Shown here: positions 353-64,000 of the stretch, one piece after another
Layout: each line of letters starts with the position of its first letter
How positions within the stretch are numbered: the stretch's first letter is position 1
Source of the DNA: Candidatus Obscuribacterales bacterium
Lineage (GTDB): Bacteria > Cyanobacteriota > Vampirovibrionia > Obscuribacterales > Obscuribacteraceae
DNA length: 64,000 nt
Assembly (NCBI GenBank): GCA_965228855.1
Contig: CBDDIJ010000003.1
Span: 448,001-512,000 of the forward strand
Direction: 5' to 3'
Made by a program: the position numbers and the translations under genes
The notes under the pieces: model-generated
The model's database searches: none
Told to the model about the DNA's origin: nothing
What the model saw: the letters and a program-made list of their open reading frames with translations, nothing else

Positions 353-2881
353 ATGACCGCTATATTCGCACACAACGACAAGCTAGAGGACGGGCACTAC
401 ACCGTTCTGAAGGAGCTTGGCGTTGGCGGCATGGGCGTGGTCTATCATTGTCGCGACGAGTTTTTGCAGCGTGATGTGGCAATAAAAATGTTGCTGCCGG
501 AACTCATGGCTGATCCTAAAAACGTAGAGGTATTCACCGAAGAAGCACGGCTTGCTGCGCGGATGGATCACCCAAATATAGTCACCGTATATGATATCGG
601 TGTTGAAAATCGGCAGAGTAAAGCGCATCACTTTGTAGCGATGGAATATCTCCCGGGCGGCAATCTGGCGGTGCGAACTCAAGGCGCGGCGCTGGCGGTT
701 GAGCACGCACTCAACTGGATGAAACAATTATCAAATGGATTGTATTTTGCTCATCGCAAGGGTGTTGTTCACCAGGATGTAAAAGCGGACAACATTTTCA
801 TCACCACAGAAGGTGATTTGAAAATTGGTGACTTCGGCTTAGCGCGCCTGATGGCGAACAAGGTTTATATCAACCCGTCGACCAAGGGGATGGGAACGCC
901 TGCGTATATGTCGCCGGAACTCTGTCGCGGAGAGCAACAGGACCAGCGCTCCGACATGTATTCTCTTGGAATTTTGTTCTTCGAGATGGTGACAGGACAG
1001 CTTCCCTATCGAGCCAACGGCATGATCGAGATGGCGATGAAGCACACGACTGCACCGATTCCCTCTGTGCGACGTTTGAATCCCGAAGTACCTGATGTTC
1101 TTGACCGACTTATCCGGCGGATGATGGAGAAGTCGCCATTCGATCGATATCAATCGCTTAATGAAGTGCTCAAGATTCTCGACGATTTGATCTTTGATAT
1201 GCGAGTGGCTCGAATGGGCCTGACCACGAAGCGAACGTCGCAGAGAGTTGATACCGCCAATGAAGTATCCTCGCAAGAACGAGCCAAAGCTGCGGCTGAA
1301 GCGGTTGCTAAACCGCCCACGCCGACACCGCCAAAGCGCGAATCGGCAGGAACGCCTCGTCACGACACCGGCGTATTGATACCGGGAGCGGTGCAGCCGC
1401 AGGGAGGTCCTTCGGCTTCGACTGCTGCAACGCCGGTCTCGAACAACGTAGTCGCGTCGCCGAACTCTGGTGCTGCTGGTACTTCACCTGCAAAAGCTCA
1501 ATCTCCGGCGCCGACTCCTGCGAAGACACCGGATCGTTTGGAAACAAATCCCCTTGAGGTTCCCCAAGGTCAAGTTTTAGACGGTAATTCCGTTTCCTCC
1601 TCTTCTGCGGCGAAAGCTCAGTCCTCGAAATCTGCGGTTGATAGGGCTGCTTCAAATGCATCGCAAATGCGTGCAGTGAATGCGCCGGATACCAGATATG
1701 GTGCTAAACCTAAACGTCCATTCGACGATCGAGCGGACATTTCGCACACACGAATAGAGGCTGCCGGCATTAAAATGTTCGAGCCGGTTGGACCGGTTCG
1801 TGAACCCAGTCAAAAAATTGCCAAGATCGAAGAGCCTCGCATCTCTGCCTATTCGATACCAGTAATCGAAGGGTTAAATCCGTTGCTCAGTGAAGTCTGG
1901 ACATTTAAAACCGGAGGACCAATCGGCTGGAATTCTACGCCTGTTGCTCCTCACGACGATGAGGGAGTCTATGTTGCCTCCGCGGACGGTACTCTGTACA
2001 AATTGCACCGTGATTCGGGCGAGCTGATTTGGCGATATGACTCCAATTCGATGATGATCGCCGGTCCCGTTGTCAGAGCAAAGGATGTCCTGATTGGAAC
2101 CACTGATGGTGCTTTAATAAAACTTGATTCTGCAACCGGAGCTCAGCAATGGAAAACACAACTGAATCATCCTATTGTAAGCGTTCCGGTTATCGCCAAT
2201 CAGGCTTTGATTGTCCCGACTTTGTCAGGGAAGGTTTCCTGTCTGGATATAAATGATGCCGGTAAGCTCTGGGACGTCGATTTGAAGTCGCCGATAGTAT
2301 GCAATCCCGCAGTTTATGGAGACAACACCGCATTTGTTTCAACTCGCGATGGCAACATCCATTCGCTTCAGGTGCGAAACGGCAAGGAGTTGTGGCGTGC
2401 AAACCTTGATGGACCAATAGTCTCAGCGCCTGCGGTATCCGCAGATAGTATTTATGTCGGAACCCAAGCGGGTACGTTTTTCTCACTCGATATTCAAACT
2501 GGCGAGTCTACCTGGGAGCACCAGTGCAGTCGCGGTATCATATCTGGTGCGACGATAGTGTTTACCTCCGTGATTTTCTGCAGTCAGGACAAGTGGTTGT
2601 ACGGTTGCGAAAAGTATGATGGGCGGCTGCGTTGGAAAGCCGCGGTCAAAGGGACCGTCCAATCAACTTTGTCGGTCGCCGCGCAGACAGTTATTGCGGT
2701 TTCTCGTGAAGGCTGGATGCAGGGATTTGATGCAGGCAGTGGACACATGAAGTGGCAGAAAAACTTTGGTCGTCGCCTGGAATCGCAACCTTTGATTATG
2801 AAGGATGGAATGCTGGTAGCGTCGGTCGAAGGCGAGCTGACATTTTATGCTTTTGGTGCCCGACTGCAAAAATCGGCCTAG
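353..2881 (+). CDS. Ser/Thr protein kinase with Pro/Ser/Ala-rich linker and C-terminal PQQ-like beta-propeller (AfsK-like architecture)
   Basis: LGVGGMGVVY, VAIK, HQDVKADN, DFG, GTPAYMSPE; C-terminal repeats such as VYVASADGTLYKLHRDSGELIW; no TM segment. Confidence 0.9.
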   Translation: MTAIFAHNDKLEDGHYTVLKELGVGGMGVVYHCRDEFLQRDVAIKMLLPELMADPKNVEVFTEEARLAARMDHPNIVTVYDIGVENRQSKAHHFVAMEYLPGGNLAVRTQGAALAVEHALNWMKQLSNGLYFAHRKGVVHQDVKADNIFITTEGDLKIGDFGLARLMANKVYINPSTKGMGTPAYMSPELCRGEQQDQRSDMYSLGILFFEMVTGQLPYRANGMIEMAMKHTTAPIPSVRRLNPEVPDVLDRLIRRMMEKSPFDRYQSLNEVLKILDDLIFDMRVARMGLTTKRTSQRVDTANEVSSQERAKAAAEAVAKPPTPTPPKRESAGTPRHDTGVLIPGAVQPQGGPSASTAATPVSNNVVASPNSGAAGTSPAKAQSPAPTPAKTPDRLETNPLEVPQGQVLDGNSVSSSSAAKAQSSKSAVDRAASNASQMRAVNAPDTRYGAKPKRPFDDRADISHTRIEAAGIKMFEPVGPVREPSQKIAKIEEPRISAYSIPVIEGLNPLLSEVWTFKTGGPIGWNSTPVAPHDDEGVYVASADGTLYKLHRDSGELIWRYDSNSMMIAGPVVRAKDVLIGTTDGALIKLDSATGAQQWKTQLNHPIVSVPVIANQALIVPTLSGKVSCLDINDAGKLWDVDLKSPIVCNPAVYGDNTAFVSTRDGNIHSLQVRNGKELWRANLDGPIVSAPAVSADSIYVGTQAGTFFSLDIQTGESTWEHQCSRGIISGATIVFTSVIFCSQDKWLYGCEKYDGRLRWKAAVKGTVQSTLSVAAQTVIAVSREGWMQGFDAGSGHMKWQKNFGRRLESQPLIMKDGMLVASVEGELTFYAFGARLQKSA

Positions 2882-2918
2882 CCTTCCAAAATGTACCGAT
2901 CTGGAGTAAGGTAGAAAT

Positions 2919-3245
2919 ATGATTAAACTCCTGGGAATAGCGTTTTTGATGAGCATTCTGGCTCTTAGTGGGTTTGTCTACGGACACCTTGTGCCGCAGC
3001 ATGAACTTCTGCAACCCATGACTGTCGAGCAGCTGTCTGCTTATCTTCTGGACGAAACGAGCGCGGAGAATGTCGCTCAAATCACTATCAAGAATGGAAA
3101 GCGCATCGAATCCGTCAAACTCAACGATTCACGAGAGTTCAGAATTGTTGCGCCCGACCAATTTTGCTTTGATTCTATAATTGATCGCGCAAGCGGAGAC
3201 TATGGTATCGAGTGTCTCGACACTTACGATTGTGGACACTTTTAG
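2919..3245 (+). CDS. Small hypothetical protein with N-terminal signal/TM segment
   Basis: 108-aa ORF, AAGGT RBS-like sequence upstream, hydrophobic N-terminus. Confidence 0.6.
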   Translation: MIKLLGIAFLMSILALSGFVYGHLVPQHELLQPMTVEQLSAYLLDETSAENVAQITIKNGKRIESVKLNDSREFRIVAPDQFCFDSIIDRASGDYGIECLDTYDCGHF

Positions 3246-3280
3246 AAGTCAGTTAAAACGAACTTGCCGATTAGAACTCA

Positions 3281-4186
3281 TCAGCTCCCAAACTGGGCAA
3301 TGATTTTGTCCGTGAGAATTGTGATGAAAACGAGAATGCTGACGACTCCGTTTACAGTGAAAAATGCGGCATTGACGCGCGATAAATCGTCTTTGCTCAC
3401 GATGCTGTGCTCGTAAATCAGCATAGCGGTCACAAGCGCCAGTCCAACCCAGTAAGCGACTCCAAGGTGTAACAGCTGCGATATGGCGAACAGGGAACCG
3501 ACTGTCACCACATGCAGTGCGCGCGAGATGTTGAGAGCGGTTCCAACTCCGAATGCGCTAGGCATGCTGTGCAGCTTTTCGTTGCGATCGAACTCCGCGT
3601 CCTGGCAAGCATAAATGATATCGAAGCCCGCGACCCACGTCGTCACTGCCAGTGCCAGCACCCAGGGTGCAGCCAGTGCTAAACTGCCACCCGCGGCAAC
3701 CCAGCCTCCAAGTGCTGCTCCGCCAAGCGCTATGCCAAGGACGATGTGGCAGAGCCAGGTAAACCGCTTCGTGAATGAGTAGAAACTCAACCAGAAAATT
3801 GCGATTGGTGAAAGTTGCAGGCAAATGAGAGGCAGTTGTGATGCGGCTCCAAGCATCACCGCGAATGACAAGATCGCACCAAGTAGAGCATGAGATTTTT
3901 TGATTCTTCCAGCAGGAATGGCACGCTCACTGGTGCGCGGATTTCGCGCGTCAATTTCGCTGTCGATCAGCCTGTTCAGGGTCATTGCCGCTGCGCGCGC
4001 TCCGGCAAAGGCGAGGACCGTATATACCACTGTCATAGGCTCGGGCAGTTTCGGCATTGCCAGAATGAGACCCGAGAGCGCAAATGGCAGCGCGAATACG
4101 GTGTGTTCTATCTTGATCATCTCTGCCCATTCGCGAACACTTAGCGAGTGGGTTTGATTGGGTCTCGGATCTAAAACAGTGGACAT
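3281..4186 (-). CDS. ubiA: UbiA-family 4-hydroxybenzoate polyprenyltransferase (MqnP-like)
   Basis: MIKIEHTVFALPFA, NRLIDSEIDARNPRT, YSFTKRFT, GFDIIYACQDAEFD; start moved from 4420 to in-frame ATG 4186. Confidence 0.88.
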   Translation of the reverse strand: MSTVLDPRPNQTHSLSVREWAEMIKIEHTVFALPFALSGLILAMPKLPEPMTVVYTVLAFAGARAAAMTLNRLIDSEIDARNPRTSERAIPAGRIKKSHALLGAILSFAVMLGAASQLPLICLQLSPIAIFWLSFYSFTKRFTWLCHIVLGIALGGAALGGWVAAGGSLALAAPWVLALAVTTWVAGFDIIYACQDAEFDRNEKLHSMPSAFGVGTALNISRALHVVTVGSLFAISQLLHLGVAYWVGLALVTAMLIYEHSIVSKDDLSRVNAAFFTVNGVVSILVFITILTDKIIAQFGS

Positions 4187-52797: not shown

Positions 52798-53034
52798 GAC
52801 AAATATCCTCTCCGGGAAACCATTAAGTGGAGAATTATATTCGTTCCTGTTTGTCAATAAATTAGAAATACGCTGCAATCAGCCATTTGTCGTCGAAAAC
52901 GTACAAAAATGTAAACATACCCTGACCGGCGCCACTGGCCTGATAACCTTCTCGAAGGTGCTCGACGTGTGCTATCGACTAATGACTTCGATGTCTTTGT
53001 AATTTACTACGTCGTCAAATCGGGGGATTTGTTA

Positions 53035-55437
53035 ATGTCTAAAAACAGAAATATCAAGCGCGCGATGCGGAAACTCGGTTTAGTAGCCGTTACTTGTGCT
53101 CTCTCCGCTGGTCCTTCCCACGCACAGATGAACTGGACCCAAGTCCCCAACTACATCGATGTGCAGGGGCGAATGACTACAGTCGAGCAAACGATCATGG
53201 AATCGCTTGCGGCCGGCAGGCTAACGGCTACCCAGGCGGATAGTTTTAAAAATGCTCTGGAGCAAATCAAATTGCAGGATAAAGCGTACAGAGCCGATGG
53301 CAAGCTCAGTATGTGGGAGCGCGTGAAAATCGTAATGGATCTGGATAAGCTTAGCGCAAGTATTCAAAGTGGTTTAACCGATCGCAAGGTTGCCATAACT
53401 GACATCAACGGACACGAAGCAGACATTGAGAGAGTCATTCAAGAATCTCTTCTCAGCGGGCGTTTGACTAATCTCGAAGCTCTTGGTTTTAAGAAATCCC
53501 TTTCTGATATCAAGGCTAAAGAGCAAACCTTAAAAGGTGATGGCGCGCTTTCTGCCAATGATCTCTTGCTGCTGTCGCAAGATCTCGATAAGCTCTCGGC
53601 AAACATTGAGCAGAGCTTGAGAACGCGTGTGATCTCAGATCCGAATATCGATTCTAAGCAAACAGAAATAAAAAATCGCATCAGTCAGTTGTCTTCTACC
53701 GGACGAATCCCGGCGCAGCAAGCCGAACTTTTCAATCAAGAGCTAAATCGAATTATCGCTCGAGAAGCCTCCTTCAAAGCATCCGGAAACGCTCTGGATA
53801 ACGAGGAGAAGTTGACGCTGGCGCTTGAACTCGAGCGTTTGCGCGGGCAACTCGATCGGTTTGAACCTGAGTCCAGCTCAACGTCGAATAAAGGGATTGA
53901 CGAGCAACAAGCCGAAATCAAGAAAGCAATTGAGGATGCGAAGATTTCCGGACGACTTTCTGTCCAGGACTCCAATGACTTGCTTCAGGAATATGCTCGA
54001 ATCGAGGCTTTGGAAGCCATGTTCCGCGCAGACGCAAAGTTGTCGGATAACGAACAGTTGACGTTGAATCGCGATCTTGCAGCCCTGAACAAAGCGGTGA
54101 CTGACATTTCGAGCAGAACTCAACCAATGAGTCTCGCCGATCGTAAGACTGCTCTCAAAACAAAAATCGTCGATGCTCAAAGCGCTGGCCGAATAAAACC
54201 TGAGAGCCGCGCCACTGAATTTCTTGACGAATTCAGCAGACTTGACGCCAAGGAAAACTTCTACAAGCAAGATGGTTCGCTGGACAGCACGGAATCTCTA
54301 ATTATCGCCAACGATATCGATGCGCTCAGCGCGAAGGTCGAGAGCTCGTTGACTGCGCTGCCCAGCCCCGCGCAACAAAAGGATTCTATCGAACGCACGA
54401 TGAATGATGCTCTGGCATCCGGGCGACTGGAGCCGGCCAAGGCTGACGAACTTCGCCAGGAGATTCAGCGGATTGCATTTCTGGACAGCGCTTTTCGTGG
54501 CAACGATGGGGTACTTGATGAACGTGAATCCGTCGCGCTCCACAAAGAGTACAACAACCTAGAGGCACGTTTAAATCGCGCGCTGCCTGCGCTTCCGGAT
54601 ATCGATACCATTCAAGCAGATATCGAGCGACGCCTGGCCGAAGGTCAGGCAAACGGTTCGATTGATGCTACCAATGCAGCCGCGATGAAAAAAGAATTTG
54701 ATCGTATAGCCACTGTTGAAGCCTCATTCCGCGCAAGCGACCAGGCACTTTCCGAGTGGGAAACAATGGCTTTGAAGCGCGATCTGGACAGACTAACTTC
54801 GGACATAGAGCGTGTTGCGAAAACAGAACCGGTCACGACTGTTGATCTGAGTGGCGGTTCCTCGGACATTAATGGGCACTGGGCTCAGAAGTACATTGCG
54901 ATTTTGCAGAAGCGTGGTACCATCGGCGGTTTTCCTGATGGTTCATTCAAGCCGGACCAGGGCATCACGCGATCTCAGTTTGCGGCAATCGCCGTCAAGG
55001 CGCTAGGATTACCGCAGGGAGGACGAGAAGTCGAATTCCGAGACCTGCCCAAAACTCACTGGGCTTACAAAGCGATTTGCTCTGCTAGCGATGCCGGTCT
55101 TGTTGGCGGATTTCCCGATGGATCTTTCCGTCCTGAGGACAAGTTAACCAGAGCCCAGGCGCTGGTTATCCTGGCAAAGGCGATAAACAAAGGTTCAAGC
55201 GACACATCTGTGCTCGATAAGTATAAGGATGGCACCGGGGTGGCCGCCTGGGCTGCTCCGAGTGTCGCGAAAGCGGCGTCTGCCGGAATTATTGTCAACC
55301 ACCCTGACCCCTATCAGATCCGACCGGCGGATCTTGCCACTCGCGCTGAGGTAGCGGCATTGACCTATCAGACAATGGCGAACCTTGGTCAAAAACTGCC
55401 GCGGGTCCGCATCGGCTTGGAAGCCAGCGGTAATTAA
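53035..55437 (+). CDS. Exported protein with seven ~80-aa helical repeats and three C-terminal SLH domains
   Basis: Signal peptide; repeats G(R/S)(L/I)..A..(F/L)..E..RI...E..FRADG.L...E...L..DLD.L; SLH HWA..GFPDGSFKP..ITRSQFA. Confidence 0.88.
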   Translation: MSKNRNIKRAMRKLGLVAVTCALSAGPSHAQMNWTQVPNYIDVQGRMTTVEQTIMESLAAGRLTATQADSFKNALEQIKLQDKAYRADGKLSMWERVKIVMDLDKLSASIQSGLTDRKVAITDINGHEADIERVIQESLLSGRLTNLEALGFKKSLSDIKAKEQTLKGDGALSANDLLLLSQDLDKLSANIEQSLRTRVISDPNIDSKQTEIKNRISQLSSTGRIPAQQAELFNQELNRIIAREASFKASGNALDNEEKLTLALELERLRGQLDRFEPESSSTSNKGIDEQQAEIKKAIEDAKISGRLSVQDSNDLLQEYARIEALEAMFRADAKLSDNEQLTLNRDLAALNKAVTDISSRTQPMSLADRKTALKTKIVDAQSAGRIKPESRATEFLDEFSRLDAKENFYKQDGSLDSTESLIIANDIDALSAKVESSLTALPSPAQQKDSIERTMNDALASGRLEPAKADELRQEIQRIAFLDSAFRGNDGVLDERESVALHKEYNNLEARLNRALPALPDIDTIQADIERRLAEGQANGSIDATNAAAMKKEFDRIATVEASFRASDQALSEWETMALKRDLDRLTSDIERVAKTEPVTTVDLSGGSSDINGHWAQKYIAILQKRGTIGGFPDGSFKPDQGITRSQFAAIAVKALGLPQGGREVEFRDLPKTHWAYKAICSASDAGLVGGFPDGSFRPEDKLTRAQALVILAKAINKGSSDTSVLDKYKDGTGVAAWAAPSVAKAASAGIIVNHPDPYQIRPADLATRAEVAALTYQTMANLGQKLPRVRIGLEASGN

Positions 55438-55469
55438 CATGGCGGTGTGGCTCTAAAGTCAATAGAATC

Positions 55470-55533
55470 AAGAGCTTCAGGTTTCTCACCCTCCCCCATC
55501 ACCCTGGAGGGGGGTGGGAGAGCTCTTTGTTTA
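55470..55533 (+). terminator. GC-rich imperfect hairpin followed by a T-rich tract after the SLH gene
   Basis: AAGAGCT/AGCTCTT outer stem; TCTCACCCTCC/GGGGGGTGGGA inner stem; TTTGTTT tail. Confidence 0.55.
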
Positions 55534-55738
55534 TCAGGATTTTGATAGATTAAAGCGCTCGACCAACAATTAATAAAGCGCTGTCTCTTAGTGCCGGTCC
55601 TGAAACTTTCGAGAAGGTAAGTAAACTCTGGCAGGGTAACCTACTTCCATTGTCGCGAGTCTTTCGTTAGTCTGGGGAAAGCTTTGAATAGTCGAAGTCA
55701 CTTTTCCTGGTGAAAACGTCTGCTGTGGCAGAGAGTTT

Positions 55739-55984
55739 ATGAAAGACGAGAAAGACTATGGAATGTTCTGTTCAGTCGCCGTGATTTTGTTGGCGATAAC
55801 ATTCGGCTGCAGTCTCGTTCTTTATATCGATCAGCAAGCCATCGTCGATTACAAGCTCGAATGCGCTCTTCAAGAATTCGAACAGAAGTTCTTGGGTCAG
55901 CAGAAGACCGTCAAGCAGCGTCCAGTTGCGACCGTGGAAGAAGCTATTCCTACGGGCATGATTCAGTCTATGGTTCTCCAGTAG
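55739..55984 (+). CDS. Small single-TM hypothetical protein
   Basis: 81 aa, one hydrophobic segment. Confidence 0.55.
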   Translation: MKDEKDYGMFCSVAVILLAITFGCSLVLYIDQQAIVDYKLECALQEFEQKFLGQQKTVKQRPVATVEEAIPTGMIQSMVLQ

Positions 55985-56176
55985 AAACTGCTGGTCTGAT
56001 TCACTCCGCGGCAGATTTTTGGCGGTATAAACCTGACGCTCCGTTAGCCTTCGAAGTCACCCGGGTGAGTTTAAACCTCAGTGAGGTTTTTGCGATTTAC
56101 CATCCGGCAGTGGGCGTTTATCGTTTAAATTCAGTTCCTATACCTGTGGAAACCGATCGCTCAAGATCGGCTCGAG

Positions 56177-56812
56177 GTGTTGTCTATGAAAATAAGCGAT
56201 TTACAGAACGAAGTGAACAAGATCGTCATTAGAAATCCCTGCGCCGCGAACTGGGATGACATGCAAGGTGATCAAACCGTTCGATTTTGCGGGCAGTGCA
56301 GTAAGAACGTTCATAATCTCAGCGCCATGAATCCTGACCAGTTAGCTTTCACGCTTGAGCTGCGCGAGCGGCAACCAACTTGCGTTTTTATGGCGCGGGC
56401 AAACGATGGAAGTGTCATCATCGATAATTGCCCCAAGTTTTTAAGAAAACAGCGCGATAAAATCCGCGCCTACGCATACTCTGCTTTGTTGACCATTGCC
56501 TGGCTACGCGCGCAAGAGGCTTGCGGGCAAACGCTGGTCGGTGCTCCAGTTGACCCGAGGTATGGGCAGGCGGTCGAGGTCGGTGCACTTGCTGATTTCG
56601 GCTATGATACCGCCCGCGATATCTCTCGCATTGTCACAGCATTGTCGGCGATTCTTGTATGGTTTATCTTTCCAATCAAAGCCAGGCACTCTACGACTGC
56701 AACCCGCCTGGTCCTGGCAGTTCTCGAACGGCTAGCCGTGCCATTGTTAGTCCATTTAGCGGGAACCTACATGCTCAATAATTATGGTGGGCTTGGTGGT
56801 GGCGGAATTTAA
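56177..56812 (+). CDS. Membrane protein with N-terminal Cys-rich PC..W..M.GD...RFC..C.K.VHNLS domain
   Basis: PCAANWDDMQGDQTVRFCGQCSKNVHNLSAM; C-terminal TM segments. Confidence 0.7.
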   Translation: MLSMKISDLQNEVNKIVIRNPCAANWDDMQGDQTVRFCGQCSKNVHNLSAMNPDQLAFTLELRERQPTCVFMARANDGSVIIDNCPKFLRKQRDKIRAYAYSALLTIAWLRAQEACGQTLVGAPVDPRYGQAVEVGALADFGYDTARDISRIVTALSAILVWFIFPIKARHSTTATRLVLAVLERLAVPLLVHLAGTYMLNNYGGLGGGGI

Positions 56813-56885
56813 CACGTAAGTGAGCCCGCCCTGGCACCATTGGCAGTGGCACGAGCAAATTTAAGCGGGAACGGAACGCTCTCGA

Positions 56886-57416
56886 TTAAAAAACGTCCGG
56901 CAGCGGAAGTGTAAGTTGCCGAGGCGCTTTAATACGACCTTCCTTTGCTGGAGACACTGCTTTGAAGATTGCTTTTCGCACCTTCTTGAACAGCAGTTTG
57001 CCTCTGGACGGACCACATTTCTTGCAGTACATCCCGCTGAGCATCTCGGGTTTTCTATGACGACTGAATAACGTCATGCAGTTTGCGCAGCGAGCCTGCC
57101 ATGCCCCTTGTGGAAGGACCGCCGTGCTGTCGCAAGCTTTCGGGTTGCATCCAAGCCGTATGCACATTTCTTTCCAAGTATCATCATGACCATGCTCTAC
57201 GCCGACTATCGCGTGGGCGATTTCGTGGAGAATGGTATCACGCACATGTGCCTCGTCATTTTTGAAGACGTAGGCATAGGATAGCTCGATACGCTTGGTG
57301 CCTGCTTTGCAGATACCAAGCATGCGTTTGCTTTTATTGAACTTAAACGACCAGCCGTTTAGACCATAACTGCTCATCAGGTCTAGCGCAATCTGTTTTG
57401 CAAGTTCAGGTTGCAT
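56886..57416 (-). CDS. SprT-like zinc metalloprotease
   Basis: TILHEIAHA..HGHDDTWK; C-terminal CANC/CKKC zinc ribbon. Confidence 0.88.
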   Translation of the reverse strand: MQPELAKQIALDLMSSYGLNGWSFKFNKSKRMLGICKAGTKRIELSYAYVFKNDEAHVRDTILHEIAHAIVGVEHGHDDTWKEMCIRLGCNPKACDSTAVLPQGAWQARCANCMTLFSRHRKPEMLSGMYCKKCGPSRGKLLFKKVRKAIFKAVSPAKEGRIKAPRQLTLPLPDVF

Positions 57417-57647
57417 GTGCGGAACTCGAAAGTGGTGCCAATTAGTCGCCGCTGGATAACGTATTCAACGCGACGCTTCCATGATTATAAGGCAAACGGG
57501 AACGCTGGCAACTACTGGATTTTGCGATGATCCGTTTCTATATTTTGTGCATATATAAGTCTAAGAGAATTTAAGTACCATCGATTCTTGACGAGCGTTA
57601 CTATTGTTGAAAGAGATCCGTTTCTGCTGGAAAGCAAGCGAGGCAAA

Positions 57648-58274
57648 ATGTCTGGGGCCGATTTGGCGCGCAAGATTCTGCGTAACCTCACATCTGGTGG
57701 CATTGATAGTTCCGGAGTGCGCCCGGACTATGTCGAGCATTTGACCAATAAGTCGAAGGCATTCTTCAAGAGCTACGAAAAAGGTTTCGGAATAGTCAAC
57801 GACGATGACATCCTTCGCGATGCGACACTCCGGATGGTTGAGCGTATCTTCAACTTGATAGAACCGTATGTAGTGCACTTCAACAACGCTGTTGATTCTT
57901 CGCAGCTCTGTCTTGCCGCGACTCCACCGGATGAAATTCTGGAGACCGTCGAAGGTGAGTGGCCCTTTCGTGCAGCTCAAGAGGTGTCGTTTTACAGGGC
58001 ACGTTTTTCGTTTCACAACATGAGTCTCGTATTGCGTGGCTCTGACGACCGTGTTGAATTCTACGTTTTGCCGGTCGATCAAGTCATGCGAATGAGCGCA
58101 GTCGAAGACCAGTACGGTGCGCTTATGGTCTATAACGCGAAGGTGTTCAATGGAAAAGTTGAGTGGGAGGTAGAGGGTAAGCCGCTCACCGATGAGCGTT
58201 TTGAACGCTACTGTCTACTCATGTTCGAATATTTTGTCAAAGAATCACAGGAAGAATTGATGCGCGCTTCTTAA
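57648..58274 (+). CDS. Hypothetical protein
   Basis: GAGG RBS before ATG 57648; globular-looking composition. Confidence 0.65.
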   Translation: MSGADLARKILRNLTSGGIDSSGVRPDYVEHLTNKSKAFFKSYEKGFGIVNDDDILRDATLRMVERIFNLIEPYVVHFNNAVDSSQLCLAATPPDEILETVEGEWPFRAAQEVSFYRARFSFHNMSLVLRGSDDRVEFYVLPVDQVMRMSAVEDQYGALMVYNAKVFNGKVEWEVEGKPLTDERFERYCLLMFEYFVKESQEELMRAS

Positions 58275-58303
58275 AATCGAAGGCGCTATGGCAAGGAAGA
58301 AAA

Positions 58304-58648
58304 GTGCTCATCTACGAAGTCAATCTCGAAGTTGACGAAGAAATCAACTACAAAATGGCGGCGTACTTGCAAGAACACTTGCAAAAAATGCTGACCTTCA
58401 AGGGTTTTCGCACGGCGTACTGGTTCTTTCGTCGTCCTGAAGATGAGCCTGATGCCCCTCCCGAAAAGACTTTGTGGACGATTCAATATGTCGTCGAGTC
58501 GAGGGAGGATCTGGACGACTATCTGGCGAATCATGCAGAAGCAATGCGCGGCGAGACCAACGAAAGGTTTGCCGATAAATTTAAGGCTACGCGCCGGATT
58601 TTGAATTTGCTTGGTGTTGCGGGTCTGTCCGCCGAGCAGAATGCATAA
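58304..58648 (+). CDS. DUF4286-like (dimeric alpha-beta barrel) protein
   Basis: IYEVNLEV, QYVVESREDLDDYLANHAEAMR, RFADKFKATRRIL. Confidence 0.75.
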   Translation: MLIYEVNLEVDEEINYKMAAYLQEHLQKMLTFKGFRTAYWFFRRPEDEPDAPPEKTLWTIQYVVESREDLDDYLANHAEAMRGETNERFADKFKATRRILNLLGVAGLSAEQNA

Positions 58649-58755
58649 CAAGGCGATTTAAAGATAATTGAGATTAGGTTGTGCTCCCACTCGGTATAAG
58701 AAATAGTGGGAATGGCCTGGTTTAAGCCCACGATTTTGGGCGAGGTGTAAGAGAT

Positions 58756-59172
58756 ATGCGAATCTTTCTCGGCTTGTGCTGGGCTCTATTGCTGACCCTG
58801 TCGGCACCGATAGGTTCAATTGCGGCGGATTCCCCATCGCCGAAAGCGAGTGATAAAGTGCTTGTGGTAATGGTTTACGACGGCGGGTGTCACATCTGGT
58901 GTGATGAAGTACGACCAATTATCAGTGGTGTGACGAAGGCGTACGGCGACAAAGTCGAACTTCACGAGATCGATGTGCAGAAATCAGTGCTGAAGGAGTC
59001 GCTCGGAAAGGCTAACGAATTGGGCGTAAAGTCTTTTGTTGAGGGCGCCCTGGCATGGGTTCCGACTGTTGGTGTTTTCGACCAGAAACGCAAGCTTGTG
59101 AAGTCGATCCCCGGCGTCAGCAAGAAAGACACCTACAAAAGAATGATTGATAAGGCCTTGAAGCAGGGTTAG
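58756..59172 (+). CDS. Exported thioredoxin-fold protein with CxxxC motif
   Basis: Signal peptide; VLVVMVYDGGCHIWCDEVRPII; WVPTVGVFD (cis-Pro position). Confidence 0.72.
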   Translation: MRIFLGLCWALLLTLSAPIGSIAADSPSPKASDKVLVVMVYDGGCHIWCDEVRPIISGVTKAYGDKVELHEIDVQKSVLKESLGKANELGVKSFVEGALAWVPTVGVFDQKRKLVKSIPGVSKKDTYKRMIDKALKQG

Positions 59173-59193
59173 TAACAGTCTCGTGAGAGAACA

Positions 59194-61134
59194 ATGGTCC
59201 GTGTAAATCCAAATCTTTTGAAGGGTTTCAGCTGGGTCGCTATCGGTCTGGTTTGTCTCACCATCGCACTATCCGGTCTTGTCTTATTCGGATGGGCAAC
59301 CAACACTGCGCTGTTGATGGACTTGTGGCCGGATATCTCGGAAAACCAGGTTGGGCGTGTCCTGTCTGCTGCGGCGGTGACGCTGATCGGATACGGCATC
59401 GCTACTCTGACTTTCATCTTCGGCAAGACTAATAAATTTGCCATCGCCGTGGGTGAGTTTATCAATGCTTTGATGCTTACCGGCGTTGGTATTGCGATTT
59501 ACTTTATCTGTACGCAGGATGTTTTCGAAAATGAGCTCGTTCTTTTCCCTGGCCCGGACGGTGCTGCTCAGGGAGCCACCTATCCGACTCCTCTATCCTA
59601 TGAAGTGGCTGGTTTGCTTCTTCTTGTTGGTCTTACGGTTGCTGCGATACCATTTGGAAAACCAAAGAAGTATCCGCTGTTCCAAATACTTGCGATAGTC
59701 TCGCTTGTGGTTCCCTTTCTGATAATCCTTTCTGCGTCGACTAATATCGCGCAACTTTGTGCGGCAACCGGGTGCATAAAGCTATCACCGGGATTCGCAT
59801 TGTTGTGCGTTACCATGCTTGTCGGAATATTCTTTTCGCGTCCTGAGCTGGGCATCGCGGCATTATTCTCGCGCTCATCTCCAGCTTATGCGTTGATGAG
59901 ACGTGTGACTGTTTTTCTCTGTATTGTGCCACCACTCATGATGGCACGCTCAATGATTACGCGTCCACCGCTCGAGGTCGAGACTGGTTTTTCCTGGGCG
60001 TTATTCGTTCTCTTCCTTCTCGTTGCGCTCGGTGCTGTCATCGCATCTGGTGTCAACATATTTAACCGAGTTGAAACCGAACTTACCGGTCAACTCGCAA
60101 ATATGAGAGACGAGTTGGAGAGAACTTCCGGAACTAGCGGTTCGGGCACGATCGATATGGCCGGTTCCATCAACTATAAGGTTCGCTATAAACGCATTTG
60201 TCTTACTTGCACGGCTGAGTACGGTGACGACATTGAACTCTGTCCAAACGATTCGTCGAAGTTGAGCCGCGTCATGAACGAGTCGATGATCGGAACTGTT
60301 TTCCTCGATAAGTATGAAATCACGGAGCGGCTCGGTGCAGGTGGCATGAGTACTGTGTATAAAGCCAAGCACAAATACATGGATAAGTATTTCGCGATCA
60401 AGGTGTTGAAAGGAAATACTGCCGAATCGCGTGATGGGCTGAAACGGTTTCAGCGCGAAGCGCGTGCAACAGGCTCGATTTCGCACTCAGGTATTGTCGG
60501 GGCGGCGGATTTTGGATTGACGCAGGACGGTCGAGCTTATCTGGTAATGGACTATTTGGAAGGCGAGAGTTTATCTCACTTCCTGGACCGCACCGGTAGT
60601 ATGAGTGTAAGTGACGTGATTGGTTTGACCGAGCAACTTTGCGATGCCCTGCGAGTCGCTCACGATAACGGCATTGTTCATCGCGATCTCAAACCGAGTA
60701 ACATCATGCTTGTTAGTGGCGAGAACGGGCAGATCGTCGCGAAGATTGTCGACTTCGGGCTTGCCAAAATTCTCGAGGATGACGAGTCTCCCGAGCTGAA
60801 GATTACCCAGACAGGCGAATGCTTCGGAAGTCCGCTCTACATGAGTCCGGAACAATGCATGGGCAAGAGGGTAGATTTTCGCTCCGACATTTATTCGCTG
60901 GGCTGCATCATGTTCGAGTGTCTAACTGGAAATCCTCCTATAATTGGTGCGAATGCTGCAGACACCATTGCTAAGCACGTCAAGGAGCGTCCCGCGGCTT
61001 TTCCTGACGCTTTGCAGATACCGAATGAAATCAAGCTCGTTGTCTACAAAGCGCTGCATAAGGAGCCGGTGTGGCGACCTCAATCAGTGACTGAGATCAA
61101 GGATTCTTTATCCGGCTCTTTGAGACAGCTTTAG
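59194..61134 (+). CDS. Ser/Thr kinase with N-terminal ~8-TM domain and zinc-ribbon-like segment
   Basis: CLTC..CPND; LGAGGMSTVY, AIK, RFQREA, HRDLKPSN, DFG, GSPLYMSPE. Confidence 0.9.
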   Translation: MVRVNPNLLKGFSWVAIGLVCLTIALSGLVLFGWATNTALLMDLWPDISENQVGRVLSAAAVTLIGYGIATLTFIFGKTNKFAIAVGEFINALMLTGVGIAIYFICTQDVFENELVLFPGPDGAAQGATYPTPLSYEVAGLLLLVGLTVAAIPFGKPKKYPLFQILAIVSLVVPFLIILSASTNIAQLCAATGCIKLSPGFALLCVTMLVGIFFSRPELGIAALFSRSSPAYALMRRVTVFLCIVPPLMMARSMITRPPLEVETGFSWALFVLFLLVALGAVIASGVNIFNRVETELTGQLANMRDELERTSGTSGSGTIDMAGSINYKVRYKRICLTCTAEYGDDIELCPNDSSKLSRVMNESMIGTVFLDKYEITERLGAGGMSTVYKAKHKYMDKYFAIKVLKGNTAESRDGLKRFQREARATGSISHSGIVGAADFGLTQDGRAYLVMDYLEGESLSHFLDRTGSMSVSDVIGLTEQLCDALRVAHDNGIVHRDLKPSNIMLVSGENGQIVAKIVDFGLAKILEDDESPELKITQTGECFGSPLYMSPEQCMGKRVDFRSDIYSLGCIMFECLTGNPPIIGANAADTIAKHVKERPAAFPDALQIPNEIKLVVYKALHKEPVWRPQSVTEIKDSLSGSLRQL

Positions 61135-61243
61135 TGTGACCGCATGAAGCAGGAGATGGATAGCGATTCCTTCCTGATTCGTTTGACGTTTATAGATCCG
61201 ACGAAAGCTTTTATGGCTATTCTTAAACGCTTGTCCCTTGTCA

Positions 61244-62710
61244 TCAATGGCTTCGGGGAATTTTGAACCAGAAAGTGCTTCCTTCGTTCAAAACTGATGT
61301 TACGCCGATTTCACCACCATGTTGTTCGACAATAGTTTTTGAAATTGGGAGTCCTAAGCCGGTACCACCTTTAGATGTCTGGTCGCTGCTCTCGACCTGT
61401 TGAAACGGTTCGAATATTTGCTCCAGTTTGTCTTGTGGAACACCCCGTCCTCTATCCGTGACGCGAAATTCGTAGTCTTCGTCATACTTAAGAACTTGAA
61501 CGGTGATCAATCCTTCCTTGGGCGAAAACTTAATGGCATTCGACAAGAAGTTGATGAGCACTTGAACCAAGCGGTCTTTGTCTGCTATGAATTGACCGCC
61601 GACGTCGTTAATCTCTAGTTTGACGCTATGACGATCAGCCATGTCTTTGACGCTTCCTATGGCGGCTTCAATGACTTCGCTGCTCGTTGTTTCTTTCAAA
61701 TCTAAGTCGAATCGAGCGCCTTCCATGGTTTCAATGCTGAGCAGGTCATCGATCAGACGCATTACCCGGTCTGTGTCGCGTGCGGCTAAAAGAATGCGAT
61801 TCTCCGCTTTCTCACTGAGATCGCCGAGCACTCCCTGCGAAAGATTATGCAAAGTGTACTGCACCGTACGTAGTGGCTCGCTGAGTTCATCCTTGACGAG
61901 GGATACGAGGTGTTTACGTTGCTTATCCACCTGTATCAGGTCCTGAGCCGCGGCGTGAAAAACTTCGTCGATATGAGCTAGTTCGTCATCTCCGCGAATC
62001 CGTGCCGCCAGCGGTTCTCTTCTTACGAGCCGACGGGTATTTTCCGAGAGTATTGCGATTGGTGTTGTGATTGTCCATGCAAAGATAACTGCTAGCACCA
62101 CTGTCAGTATCACATGCGCGCCCACTCCGTAAATTATAAATTGGCGAATATACTCGCGGTAAAGCTTTTCTTTAGCTTGAACTTTGGTTTGTGTATCTTG
62201 CTCCATTGTAAGAAGCTTATCGATGACTTTGAACGAACCTGTCATTCGAGAATACACGCGGTCCGATTTTTTTGTGGTGCCGGCGACCTTTTGAAGATCT
62301 GCATCCGGTTCGAACTCGCCTGTAAAAATAGTCCGCAATCTGTTCAGCGTTGTAGTTACAGTGGACTCTACTTCAAGGCTCAAGCTCCTGCGAGGCTCGG
62401 TTCTTTCGCAAAGACGTTTCAACTCTATGAGTTGGTTGCTGATGAAGTGAGCATCCTCATCGAAGCGAACGTCGAGCATCGGAATCTTCATTGCGTTGTA
62501 CAACATAGAAAGAAACTGGCAGTCGATTACTCTAGTACCGATGGTAGTTGCCACTGCGACAATTTTCTTAGATTCGATCCGGCGCTGAATATCACCTTCT
62601 GCAACAACCAGCAGGTAAACGAGGACGCTCATGAAAATCACTTCGAAGACTAGAGGTACTATCACGAGAAACAATCCCTTCTGGGCAATTTTTGATTTGA
62701 CCTTAATCAT
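61244..62710 (-). CDS. Membrane sensor histidine kinase-like protein with intact ATPase domain but no phospho-acceptor His
   Basis: TM-sensor-TM-HAMP; H-box reads VKDELSEPL; N box NFLSNAIKF, G1 DRGRGV, F IFEPF, G2 GGTGLGL. Confidence 0.88.
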   Translation of the reverse strand: MIKVKSKIAQKGLFLVIVPLVFEVIFMSVLVYLLVVAEGDIQRRIESKKIVAVATTIGTRVIDCQFLSMLYNAMKIPMLDVRFDEDAHFISNQLIELKRLCERTEPRRSLSLEVESTVTTTLNRLRTIFTGEFEPDADLQKVAGTTKKSDRVYSRMTGSFKVIDKLLTMEQDTQTKVQAKEKLYREYIRQFIIYGVGAHVILTVVLAVIFAWTITTPIAILSENTRRLVRREPLAARIRGDDELAHIDEVFHAAAQDLIQVDKQRKHLVSLVKDELSEPLRTVQYTLHNLSQGVLGDLSEKAENRILLAARDTDRVMRLIDDLLSIETMEGARFDLDLKETTSSEVIEAAIGSVKDMADRHSVKLEINDVGGQFIADKDRLVQVLINFLSNAIKFSPKEGLITVQVLKYDEDYEFRVTDRGRGVPQDKLEQIFEPFQQVESSDQTSKGGTGLGLPISKTIVEQHGGEIGVTSVLNEGSTFWFKIPRSH

Positions 62711-63998
62711 CTTGCTTTCCTCTCGGAGGAAGCTTCAACGCGAAATGACTTGTCTGAGAGTCAGACACCGCTGTCAGTGAACCACCATGAGCTTGTGCGA
62801 TTGCCGCTGCCAGGGCGAGAAATAATATTCTCCCTTTGACCTCGTTCTCTTCCGTTTCTCGGGTCCTGTCGAAATAATTCGCTGCTTGTACCGGAGACAG
62901 TGGCGGACCATTGTCCAGAAACCGGATGTCTACGAATCCTGCACTGTCGATAGTACCGGTAATTGTCAAACTTCCTTCGGAGGGAATTCTGAGTAAGCAG
63001 GTCTCAATCAGGATCTCAGTGGTTTCTTTTAGTTTGTCCCAATCTCCAACCAGAGGCAGTTCTTCAAACTGACAGTCCACCGATATCTGTTTCTCTTCGA
63101 TGAATTGCTCATGGGCATCAAGTGCGTCAACGATTATGTGTCCGATGTCCAGCTCCGCTTGTTTAAGAATCTGGCTTCCTGCTTCCAGGCGCTCCAGCAA
63201 GAGCAAATTGTTTATGAGTTTAATCAGGCGATCGACGCTCTGCTGCGCCCTTACTATCTCAGGGGTGGCTCGCTCGGAAAACTGTCCCATCGCTCCTGCC
63301 TCGAGCAAGGTCAGAGTGCCCTGGACGGAGGTCAATGGTGTTCTCAGCTCGTGACTGACTACAGCAACTAATTGTTGTTTGAACTTCTCGAATTCGAGAA
63401 TTTCATTTGCGGTTTCGTGCAGAGCGTGGTCCAGATCCGCGATCTCATCGGTTCCGCGAAGAGGAGGGTCAAGAGGCAATCGAGCGCCGAATTTGAATGT
63501 GTTGTTCAACACGTTTTCCATTCGTGCCGTGATCCCGCGCATCACGAAGGTCGCAAGAAATACGGTGATGGCAATGTTCGCGATGAAGCCGAAGAGAAAG
63601 AAAATTTGCAACTGCACAAGGGTTTGCTGTCGCAGTTTTGGTTGAATCGTCAGAATCTTCTGCTCCTTCTCAAGAATCACAGATGCTGCGGTTTCTGGTC
63701 GCTGTTGATTCGCTGAAGTGAGGCTGGCTAAATTGAAGAATGAGCTGACTCTCGCTTGAGGGGCGCTGTTGAGGGCGCGGTCTTGCTGGCGCATCCACTC
63801 GTCGGCGGCGTTGCGAAGCCGGCTGGCAGACTCAAGTTCGGCAGGATCTTTGGCGCACAGCTTTACTAGTTTGGAATATGCTCGCAACAATTTTGCGCGT
63901 GACTTTTCGTTGCGCTCCTTCATTTCGTTGCGACGCGTGATGTTGTAGAGAATCGCTGACGTCATCGAGTCTGAAATCTCTTTGACCATTGTCTCAAC
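62703..63998 (-). CDS. Membrane sensor histidine kinase-like protein (5' end outside the window) with intact H-box but degenerate ATPase domain
   Basis: HAMP GTDEIADL; VSHELRTPLTSVQG; N box Asn lost, DNGPPL, GRILFL; frame open to the window edge. Confidence 0.85.
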   Translation of the reverse strand, partial: VETMVKEISDSMTSAILYNITRRNEMKERNEKSRAKLLRAYSKLVKLCAKDPAELESASRLRNAADEWMRQQDRALNSAPQARVSSFFNLASLTSANQQRPETAASVILEKEQKILTIQPKLRQQTLVQLQIFFLFGFIANIAITVFLATFVMRGITARMENVLNNTFKFGARLPLDPPLRGTDEIADLDHALHETANEILEFEKFKQQLVAVVSHELRTPLTSVQGTLTLLEAGAMGQFSERATPEIVRAQQSVDRLIKLINNLLLLERLEAGSQILKQAELDIGHIIVDALDAHEQFIEEKQISVDCQFEELPLVGDWDKLKETTEILIETCLLRIPSEGSLTITGTIDSAGFVDIRFLDNGPPLSPVQAANYFDRTRETEENEVKGRILFLALAAAIAQAHGGSLTAVSDSQTSHFALKLPPRGKQDD

Positions 63999-64000
63999 GG

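Follow-up and report, generated by a model that had tools for sequence, protein, structure and literature searches.

Can two sensor histidine kinases that have each lost a different half of the catalytic machinery make up one working kinase between them? The question is raised by two adjacent genes, here called A and B, at one end of a 64,000-nucleotide stretch of DNA (the window) from a Candidatus Obscuribacterales bacterium, whose genome bears the code G000. A keeps the phosphorylatable histidine of its DHp domain (for dimerization and histidine phosphotransfer) and has lost the ATP-binding boxes of its catalytic (CA) domain; B shows the reverse. On the strength of sequence comparisons we consider it probable that A and B form an obligate heterodimer of HisKA-class sensor kinases with a single composite active site working in trans. 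The features of the pair are as follows:

62703..64000, minus strand, reaching beyond the window end: gene A (acceptor half), with a first transmembrane helix (TM1), a CHASE3-like four-helix sensor, TM2, HAMP, a DHp domain with intact H-box and a dead CA domain
61244..62710, minus strand: gene B (catalytic half), 488 amino acids, layout as in A, H-box lost, CA domain intact
62703..62710, minus strand: overlap of the stop of A with the start of B, 8 nucleotides
63351..63353, minus strand: His275 of A in H-E-L-R-T-P, with the acid at H+1 and the Thr at H+4 retained
62820..63002, minus strand: dead ATP-binding boxes of A, with Thr392 for the N-box Asn (63002-63000), G1 DNGPP (from 62915) and G2 GRILF (from 62834)
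61889..61891, minus strand: Asp274 of B in the place of the phospho-His (GAT codon)
61352..61540, minus strand: intact ATP site of B, with N-box Asn391 (61540-61538), G1 DRGRG (from 61456) and G2 GTGLG (from 61366)

When the genome is read beyond the window, gene A starts 175 nucleotides past base 64000 (G000:C3:512175) and encodes 490 amino acids. The initial annotation had described two adjacent reading frames with an 8-nucleotide overlap and a shared sensor-TM-HAMP-DHp-CA layout, the upstream one with an H-box and degenerate ATP boxes, and this description is borne out. Each protein has two TM helices, a helical sensor, a HAMP-like linker, a DHp and a CA domain. The second G1 glycine and the G2 box of A are gone along with the N-box Asn. 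A scores 62.4 bits against the Pfam family HisKA, which passes the cut-off, and 23.5 bits against HATPase_c (cut-off 26.4), whereas B reaches 109.5 bits for HATPase_c and 20.5 bits for HisKA (cut-off 26.9). The CHASE3-like label of the sensor is based on a Pfam match below the cut-off (E 8.9e-5) and on an atlas score of 0.95. The labels H, N, G1, G2 and HAMP and the roles of the H+1 and H+4 residues are established knowledge and not tool output. Neither protein alone has what an autonomous class I (HisKA) kinase requires, only both together do, and the pair has its ATP site on one protein and its phospho-acceptor on the other, as in a split kinase. No HPt domain was matched in A or B; both have HisKA-type DHp and HATPase_c folds, so that a CheA-type split does not apply. 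His275 of A is predicted to be the sole phospho-acceptor of the pair. The overlap would couple the translation of the two genes; a promoter scan gave no signal above shuffled sequences.

The loss of the histidine from B, which the initial annotation had likewise held to be genuine, is not a sequencing error, since positions 55000-64000 of the window show zero differences to a contig of another sequencing run (possibly of the source sample itself) and B lacks the histidine in all orthologues. Among 41 genomes searched we found 10 clear orthologues of A with 41-97% identity. At 10/10 of these loci B lies directly downstream of A and is without the histidine, which is replaced by D, E, N or Y and never by H. 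The phospho-His of A is kept in 10/10 orthologues and thus in 11/11 aligned A sequences, and the adjacency and the two reciprocal features that were to be checked in orthologous pairs are therefore conserved. The CA domain of B is intact at 9/10 loci, the contig of the tenth (G006) stopping inside B, and the N-box Asn is missing in A of 9/10; the A protein of G021 retains the Asn and has no G2. Among orthologues the dead CA domain is the most divergent region of A (37% mean identity), yet its dN/dS ratio (non-synonymous to synonymous substitution rates) is 0.10-0.23; the CA domain of B shows 64% mean identity and a dN/dS of 0.06-0.16. The DHp helices of B are 79% (helix 1, without the His) and 77% identical, in comparison to 44% for its sensor. 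The dN/dS is ≤0.23 for each region of A and B that allowed its calculation, so purifying selection acts on both proteins throughout.

Two other histidines of B should be mentioned here. His267, in the motif RKHLV, had been named as a possible alternative acceptor. It lies one heptad before the lost His, is Gln in 2/10 orthologues (G006 and G009) and is not followed by an acidic neighbour, which makes it unlikely in this role. His288 (window 61847-61849) lies two heptads past the lost His and is present in all 10 aligned B sequences and in the partial B of G006. It is not kept in the B units of other pairs.

The source genome contains 106 kinase-like open reading frames (ORFs) forming 13 same-strand neighbour pairs, 5 of them with two intact kinases (intact-intact) and 8 complementary in the sense of A and B. 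Complementarity at 8/13 neighbour pairs cannot be explained by chance. All eight full-length kinases with a histidine and a dead CA domain abut a kinase without histidine and with an intact CA domain, and all eight pairs overlap, 6 of the 7 besides the window pair by 4 nucleotides. Partners within a pair share 20-32% identity. For 3/8 of these pairs an OmpR/PhoB-type regulator is encoded within 731 nucleotides. Two of the intact-intact pairs overlap as well (L009:6976-10676 and L010:6627-10222) and are candidates for the ancestral hetero-pairing state.

For the other genomes of the order (107 in total) we considered all matches in four (G012, G041, G065 and G078) and hand-picked loci elsewhere. 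Neighbouring or twin matches were fetched, so the set is enriched for pairs by the choice of queries. After 23 loci (duplicates, near-copies and other architectures) and one three-gene overlap had been left out, 67 distinct neighbour pairs remained, which come from some 20 genomes with 10 or more genus codes. Fifty of them are complementary (35 split, 15 fused); the others comprise 8 intact-intact pairs (one with a weakened G1), 8 half-way pairs and one without any histidine. Partners also match in the number of PAS-sized inserts, which was equal in 36/36 scorable complementary pairs, 14 being unscored. A scan of genome contigs with an A profile returned 79 loci, mostly intact kinases, among them 2 complementary split pairs and 1 intact-intact fusion. 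A dead-CA profile failed to place A-type proteins above intact kinases. Among the 150 of 166 matches listed for five further genomes (one of the same family, one of another family in the order and three of other orders), and likewise in G041, no two matches lay in one reading frame; of the adjacent kinases in these genomes only one intact pair of G041 was fetched.

In G078 two receptor units are joined head to tail in 14 reading frames (L217-L230), each with four TM helices. A fused form of about 1250 amino acids occurs in more than 100 clusters (P0001-P0102), annotated merely as PAS or HAMP kinases. Among the 120 best matches listed for this family 102 are two-unit proteins and 18 have a single unit. 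The two-unit proteins comprise 77 with a B unit followed by an A unit (B-then-A), 1 A-then-B, 20 intact-intact, 2 B-intact and 2 intact-A, so that 78/102 are complementary, and none of the 102 contains a doubly dead unit. A search with a fused form of about 1000 amino acids gave 74 matches, of which 31 are fusions of this family. Nineteen are B-then-A, 7 of them retaining the Asn but with degraded G boxes; 11 are intact-intact, and one has both histidines and two weakened CA domains.

We then considered representatives at 50% identity, taking the best 150 proteins of a profile search (31 previously seen). Seven were set aside: four fragments, an unrelated four-unit kinase and two without a detected first DHp domain, which show an intact CA domain and no H-box. 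Two units are present in each of the remaining 143. Complementary proteins make up 90 of these, 73 in the order B-then-A and 17 in the order A-then-B; of the rest 25 are intact-intact, 26 are half-way and 2 are doubly weakened. All units without histidine have an intact CA domain with the full N, G1 and G2 set (109/109), and all CA-dead units carry the histidine and the H+1 acid (78/78), with T, S or N at H+4 in 74/78. A unit dead in both His and CA was not found among the 143. As the fused proteins are kin, these counts are not independent. A shortened unit is found in 11/143. In several fusions (L229:3099-5765, L230:2996-5560, P0231, P0234, P0237, P0289, P0290, P0293, P0304) a large part of the CA domain, or the whole of it, is missing from the His-bearing unit. 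Where this unit is C-terminal the shortening could reflect a contig end; the loss also recalls the dispensable kinase domain of FasC (see below).

The strictness of this pattern bears on the direction of phosphoryl transfer. If phosphorylation occurred in cis, a duplicated unit should decay to one intact and one doubly dead half, whereas in trans the histidine and the CA domain can survive on opposite halves. The strict complementarity of the fusions thus argues for trans, the opposite of what a cis-acting ancestor would lead one to expect. The DHp helices of the representatives bear on the role of B. Along helix 1 A units equal intact units, while B units conserve L+2, P+5, L+6 and L+16 and vary at positions 0, +3, +4, +7, +11 and +15. 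Judging from the helix pattern, the conserved positions would form the buried core of the DHp bundle and the variable ones the regulator-docking face. Since the core is kept and the docking face lost, B appears as a bundle partner and ATP donor rather than a regulator-binding pseudokinase. A histidine at any given position from -13 to +21 occurs in at most 7/109 B units. Structure prediction for L224, a B-then-A fusion, from a 39-row alignment (pLDDT 78.4, pTM 0.52, a score at which the packing of the units is not readable) suggests that the dead CA domain retains a GHKL-like order of helices and strands. The single-sequence fold of L222, an intact-intact fusion, was too low for use (pLDDT 36.5).

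Trees of the fusions were built without the H-box and CA columns and are unrooted. In the tree of the 1250-residue family (FastTree) the lone A-then-B protein is nested among intact-intact ones (supports 98 and 100), and loss of the His only and loss of the CA domain first occur in two other clades. For 90 fusions without PAS the starred branches imply no fewer than 10 changes of the B-then-A label and no fewer than 8 of A-then-B. Intact-intact, A-then-B, B-then-A and B-intact proteins occur together in one clade of support 100. A single clade for the B units of this class is rejected (p-AU 6e-12, 58 rows, after 31/89 long-branch, near-copy or misassigned rows had been dropped). The trees point to repeated origins of split pairs from intact-intact duplicates in both mirror orders, the likely direction being from intact to split. 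The sister group of the window pair is not resolved. The first unit of two other fusions, P0148 and P0149, carries K-D-E-L-S in place of the H-box as does B of the window. Their clade is nested among intact-intact fusions and the match is apparently convergent.

Taken together, the conserved pairs, the eight pairs of the source genome, the natural fusions and the strict complementarity over many origins support the heterodimer. We propose that A and B are co-translated membrane sensor kinases that would assemble as A:B, their CHASE3-like sensors pairing outside the membrane. A signal would pass via TM2 and HAMP to a mixed DHp four-helix bundle, where the CA domain of B would bind ATP and phosphorylate His275 of A in trans. 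Helix 1 of A would dock an OmpR/PhoB-type regulator encoded elsewhere, transfer the phosphate to it and probably remove it as well. The second site of the ancestral homodimer, made up of the B histidine position and the A CA domain, would be switched off and retained as a scaffold. The ancestors of such pairs may have been copies of an intact kinase, in tandem or fused, which were pairing with one another already; a single loss of His or CA would be tolerated, and the reciprocal loss would then lock the pair. Heterodimer formation, trans phosphorylation, the regulator class and the phosphatase activity are what we infer from these patterns.

The interpretation given in the initial annotation is thus partly supported. 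Its split-kinase heterodimer receives strong support from the comparison of pairs and fusions. The accompanying idea of an AND gate finds no support in the present results: integration that is OR-like or graded, or a single composite site for the ligand, appears just as plausible, because ligand bound to either one or both protomers activates the AgrC dimer (available text of PMC6066662, citing George Cisar 2009). Whether this one lineage has repeatedly turned homodimeric kinases into obligate single-site heterodimers and single-chain pseudo-dimers is, in our view, an evenly balanced matter. Each would join two different sensors and permit asymmetric or two-input sensing on a scale undescribed in bacteria, and the retained sites would read out trans phosphorylation despite a cis-like hairpin.

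Several observations weigh against the A:B heterodimer or its generality. There is no response regulator near the window pair, so that its regulator would be an orphan: no receiver-domain protein is encoded in the window, as had been noted before, nor upstream of it, the nearest lying 55 kb off. The source genome also has a membrane kinase with a different layout that is doubly dead and stands alone (L011, 6485-8920, minus strand) and a lone soluble kinase without the His (L012, 5976-7541, plus strand). In G021 the A protein, as mentioned, still carries the N-box Asn. Elsewhere, the A unit of L254 has Tyr for His by a one-base change in a fragmented genome, leaving this pair free of His; L167 carries a His at the B position inside a clade lacking it; and in L168, a homologous pair, the reading frame of A is broken. 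At L249 a soluble doubly dead PAS kinase (2363-3595, minus strand) adjoins an intact kinase and a receiver protein; as another architecture it was excluded from the 67 pairs. The fusions P0153 and P0222 keep both histidines with both CA domains weakened. The fused sets were found with profiles lacking doubly dead units and cover the best 120-150 proteins only, a bias against such units. A single B clade over all classes is not rejected on the CA region (p-AU 0.096). Finally, the chief difficulty lies in the geometry: the span from helix 1 to helix 2 is 51 residues in most units, as in HK853 and one more than in WalK, both among the nearest solved structures; chains of the two are the best Foldseek matches, which do not show the handedness of the hairpin. 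HK853 acts in cis. WalK is likewise described as cis-acting (PMC11371814, in the part available), and it is the handedness that determines cis or trans according to the accessible parts of PMC6798134, PMC11371814 and PMC5956149. In kinases of the CpxA type, which autophosphorylate in trans, the handedness brings the CA domain of the partner to the His. Hairpin length predicts this poorly, and the sites retained in the present family would speak for trans.

Among other explanations, A:B might be no autokinase; under the control of the signal it would instead dephosphorylate, or serve as a phosphate sink for, regulators that other kinases have charged, ATP on B acting allosterically. The H+4 residue retained in A-type units, the hairpin resembling that of cis kinases, for which trans transfer would be barred, and the orphan state of the pair, whose genome encodes 135 receiver proteins, 54 of them of OmpR size, beside 106 kinase-like ORFs, would all agree with this. 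We nevertheless regard it as unlikely, as the H+1 acid needed for autophosphorylation is present in every CA-dead unit and the full N, G1 and G2 set in every B unit. Moreover, cis geometry would place the CA domain of the same chain beside the His, so cis action should not favour this combination either.

There is also a small chance that A and B form separate homodimers, A2 being a membrane-anchored phosphotransferase like ChpT or Spo0B and B2 a kinase without His that phosphorylates A2 between dimers in the fashion of CheA4 and CheA3. The make-up of A, a DHp domain with a dead CA domain, is that of ChpT and Spo0B. The CA domain of A is shortened or deleted in some fusions (the 11/143 mentioned above, L229 and L230), and transfer between CheA3 and CheA4 does run between separate proteins (PMC3591291, in the text available). 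Separate homodimers would, however, need neither the matched linkers (36/36) and head-to-tail fusion of whole receptors nor the conservation of the B DHp helices over the B sensor, and intact-intact tandem and fused ancestors suggest earlier hetero-pairing.

We consider it highly improbable that B is active alone via His267 or His288, or acts as a DivL-like pseudokinase that binds a phosphorylated regulator, with A as an accessory. His267 sits a single heptad before the lost His and His288 is conserved among the orthologues, but Gln takes the place of His267 in G006 and G009 and no acid comes after it, near the H-box no position has a His in more than 7/109 B units, and the drift in B sits in the regulator-docking face. 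That A and B are decaying duplicates without joint function, as the broken A frame of L168 might suggest, is largely refuted already and hardly credible in view of the low dN/dS, the intact frames in 10 other genomes and the strict complementarity.

In the neighbourhood of the pair, a 1018-residue low-complexity protein with a thioredoxin-like domain is encoded directly upstream of A (L001:7349-10405, minus strand), and several orthologous loci have a comparable gene ahead of the pair. A small thioredoxin-like gene and a membrane Ser/Thr kinase (window 58756-61134, plus strand) converge on the pair, with similar modules near it in several relatives. Further away, positions 52969-55437 (plus strand) encode 822 amino acids with repeated helical units and a C-terminal region that we take to be S-layer-homology-like. 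The lone deviant kinases of the source genome also include a CheA-like protein and a fragment.

The usual view of sensor histidine kinases is that they form homodimers, and heterodimers are said to be rare among them (available text of PMC12675982). Here an entire family seems to work with heterodimers whose halves are reciprocally dead. Intact-intact, half-way and fused forms still exist in it, which offers a replicated natural series for the passage from homodimer to obligate heterodimer. Three points can be tested on it: whether a dimer can do with a single active site (half-of-sites signalling), whether the length of the hairpin is predictive of cis or trans and how two different sensors combine in one dimer. 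The single-chain double kinases could serve as scaffolds for asymmetric structural work and for two-input synthetic sensors. Annotation pipelines would label such proteins as ordinary or dead kinases.

The nearest functional analogue is FasB/FasC of group A Streptococcus, like A/B two adjacent full-length membrane sensor kinases. According to the accessible text of PMC12675982 they are proposed to form a heterodimer in which the kinase domain of FasB works with His246 of FasC, the kinase domain of FasC being dispensable, as judged from genetics and two-hybrid data. The same text indicates that FasB retains DHp histidines and that cis action on H284 is not excluded, so reciprocal loss is not demonstrated there. 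FasB/FasC have six-TM sensors and a ComE-like regulator in their operon, whereas A and B have two TM helices each and the regulators beside three sister pairs of the source genome are of the OmpR/PhoB type. FasB/FasC is a single system, whereas the present family comprises dozens of two-TM HAMP/HisKA pairs in which both losses are fixed, along with fusions and intermediate forms.

CheA3/CheA4 of Rhodobacter sphaeroides and Hik36/Hik43 of Synechocystis resemble A/B in that ATP binding and phospho-acceptor reside on separate proteins, and neither partner autophosphorylates alone in the portions available of PMC3591291 and PMC7656254. The former source, in its accessible part, puts the share of kinases that could be split at up to 1.7%. 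These are soluble class II systems in which whole domains were removed (HPt versus CA), whereas A and B keep entire receptors with their own sensors. Rv0600c and Rv0601c of Mycobacterium tuberculosis are two fragments of one kinase and not full-length paralogues with reciprocal point losses. Like the A/B family they provide two kinase genes for one output, the system being described as two kinases with one regulator, TcrA (PMC3544749, as far as available).

A and B would be, by sequence, the natural counterpart of laboratory heterodimers. For EnvZ a His mutant and an ATP-site mutant reportedly regain activity in trans. The same is described for engineered AgrC heterodimers (PMC6066662, text in part). 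Both combine laboratory mutants of a single homodimeric protein, their sensors being identical. RetS/GacS is a kinase heterodimer as well (accessible part of PMC12189002). There RetS inhibits an autonomous GacS, unlike the mutually dependent full-length receptors proposed here. DivL is a pseudokinase that senses the phosphorylation of a regulator and keeps its regulator-binding face; the B units have lost the predicted docking face and kept the core, which speaks against a DivL-like B. ChpT and Spo0B are DHp proteins with dead CA domains. A literature search, in which subscription papers were mostly uncovered and supplements not included, found no account from this lineage of half-dead kinases in reciprocal pairs or of fused double kinases. 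Heterodimers, kinases without His and DHp proteins with dead CA domains are thus each known, and none of RetS/GacS, DivL, ChpT and Spo0B is a mutually dependent full-length pair. The A/B family is real, conserved and lineage-wide, and it is a variant of the split-kinase idea.

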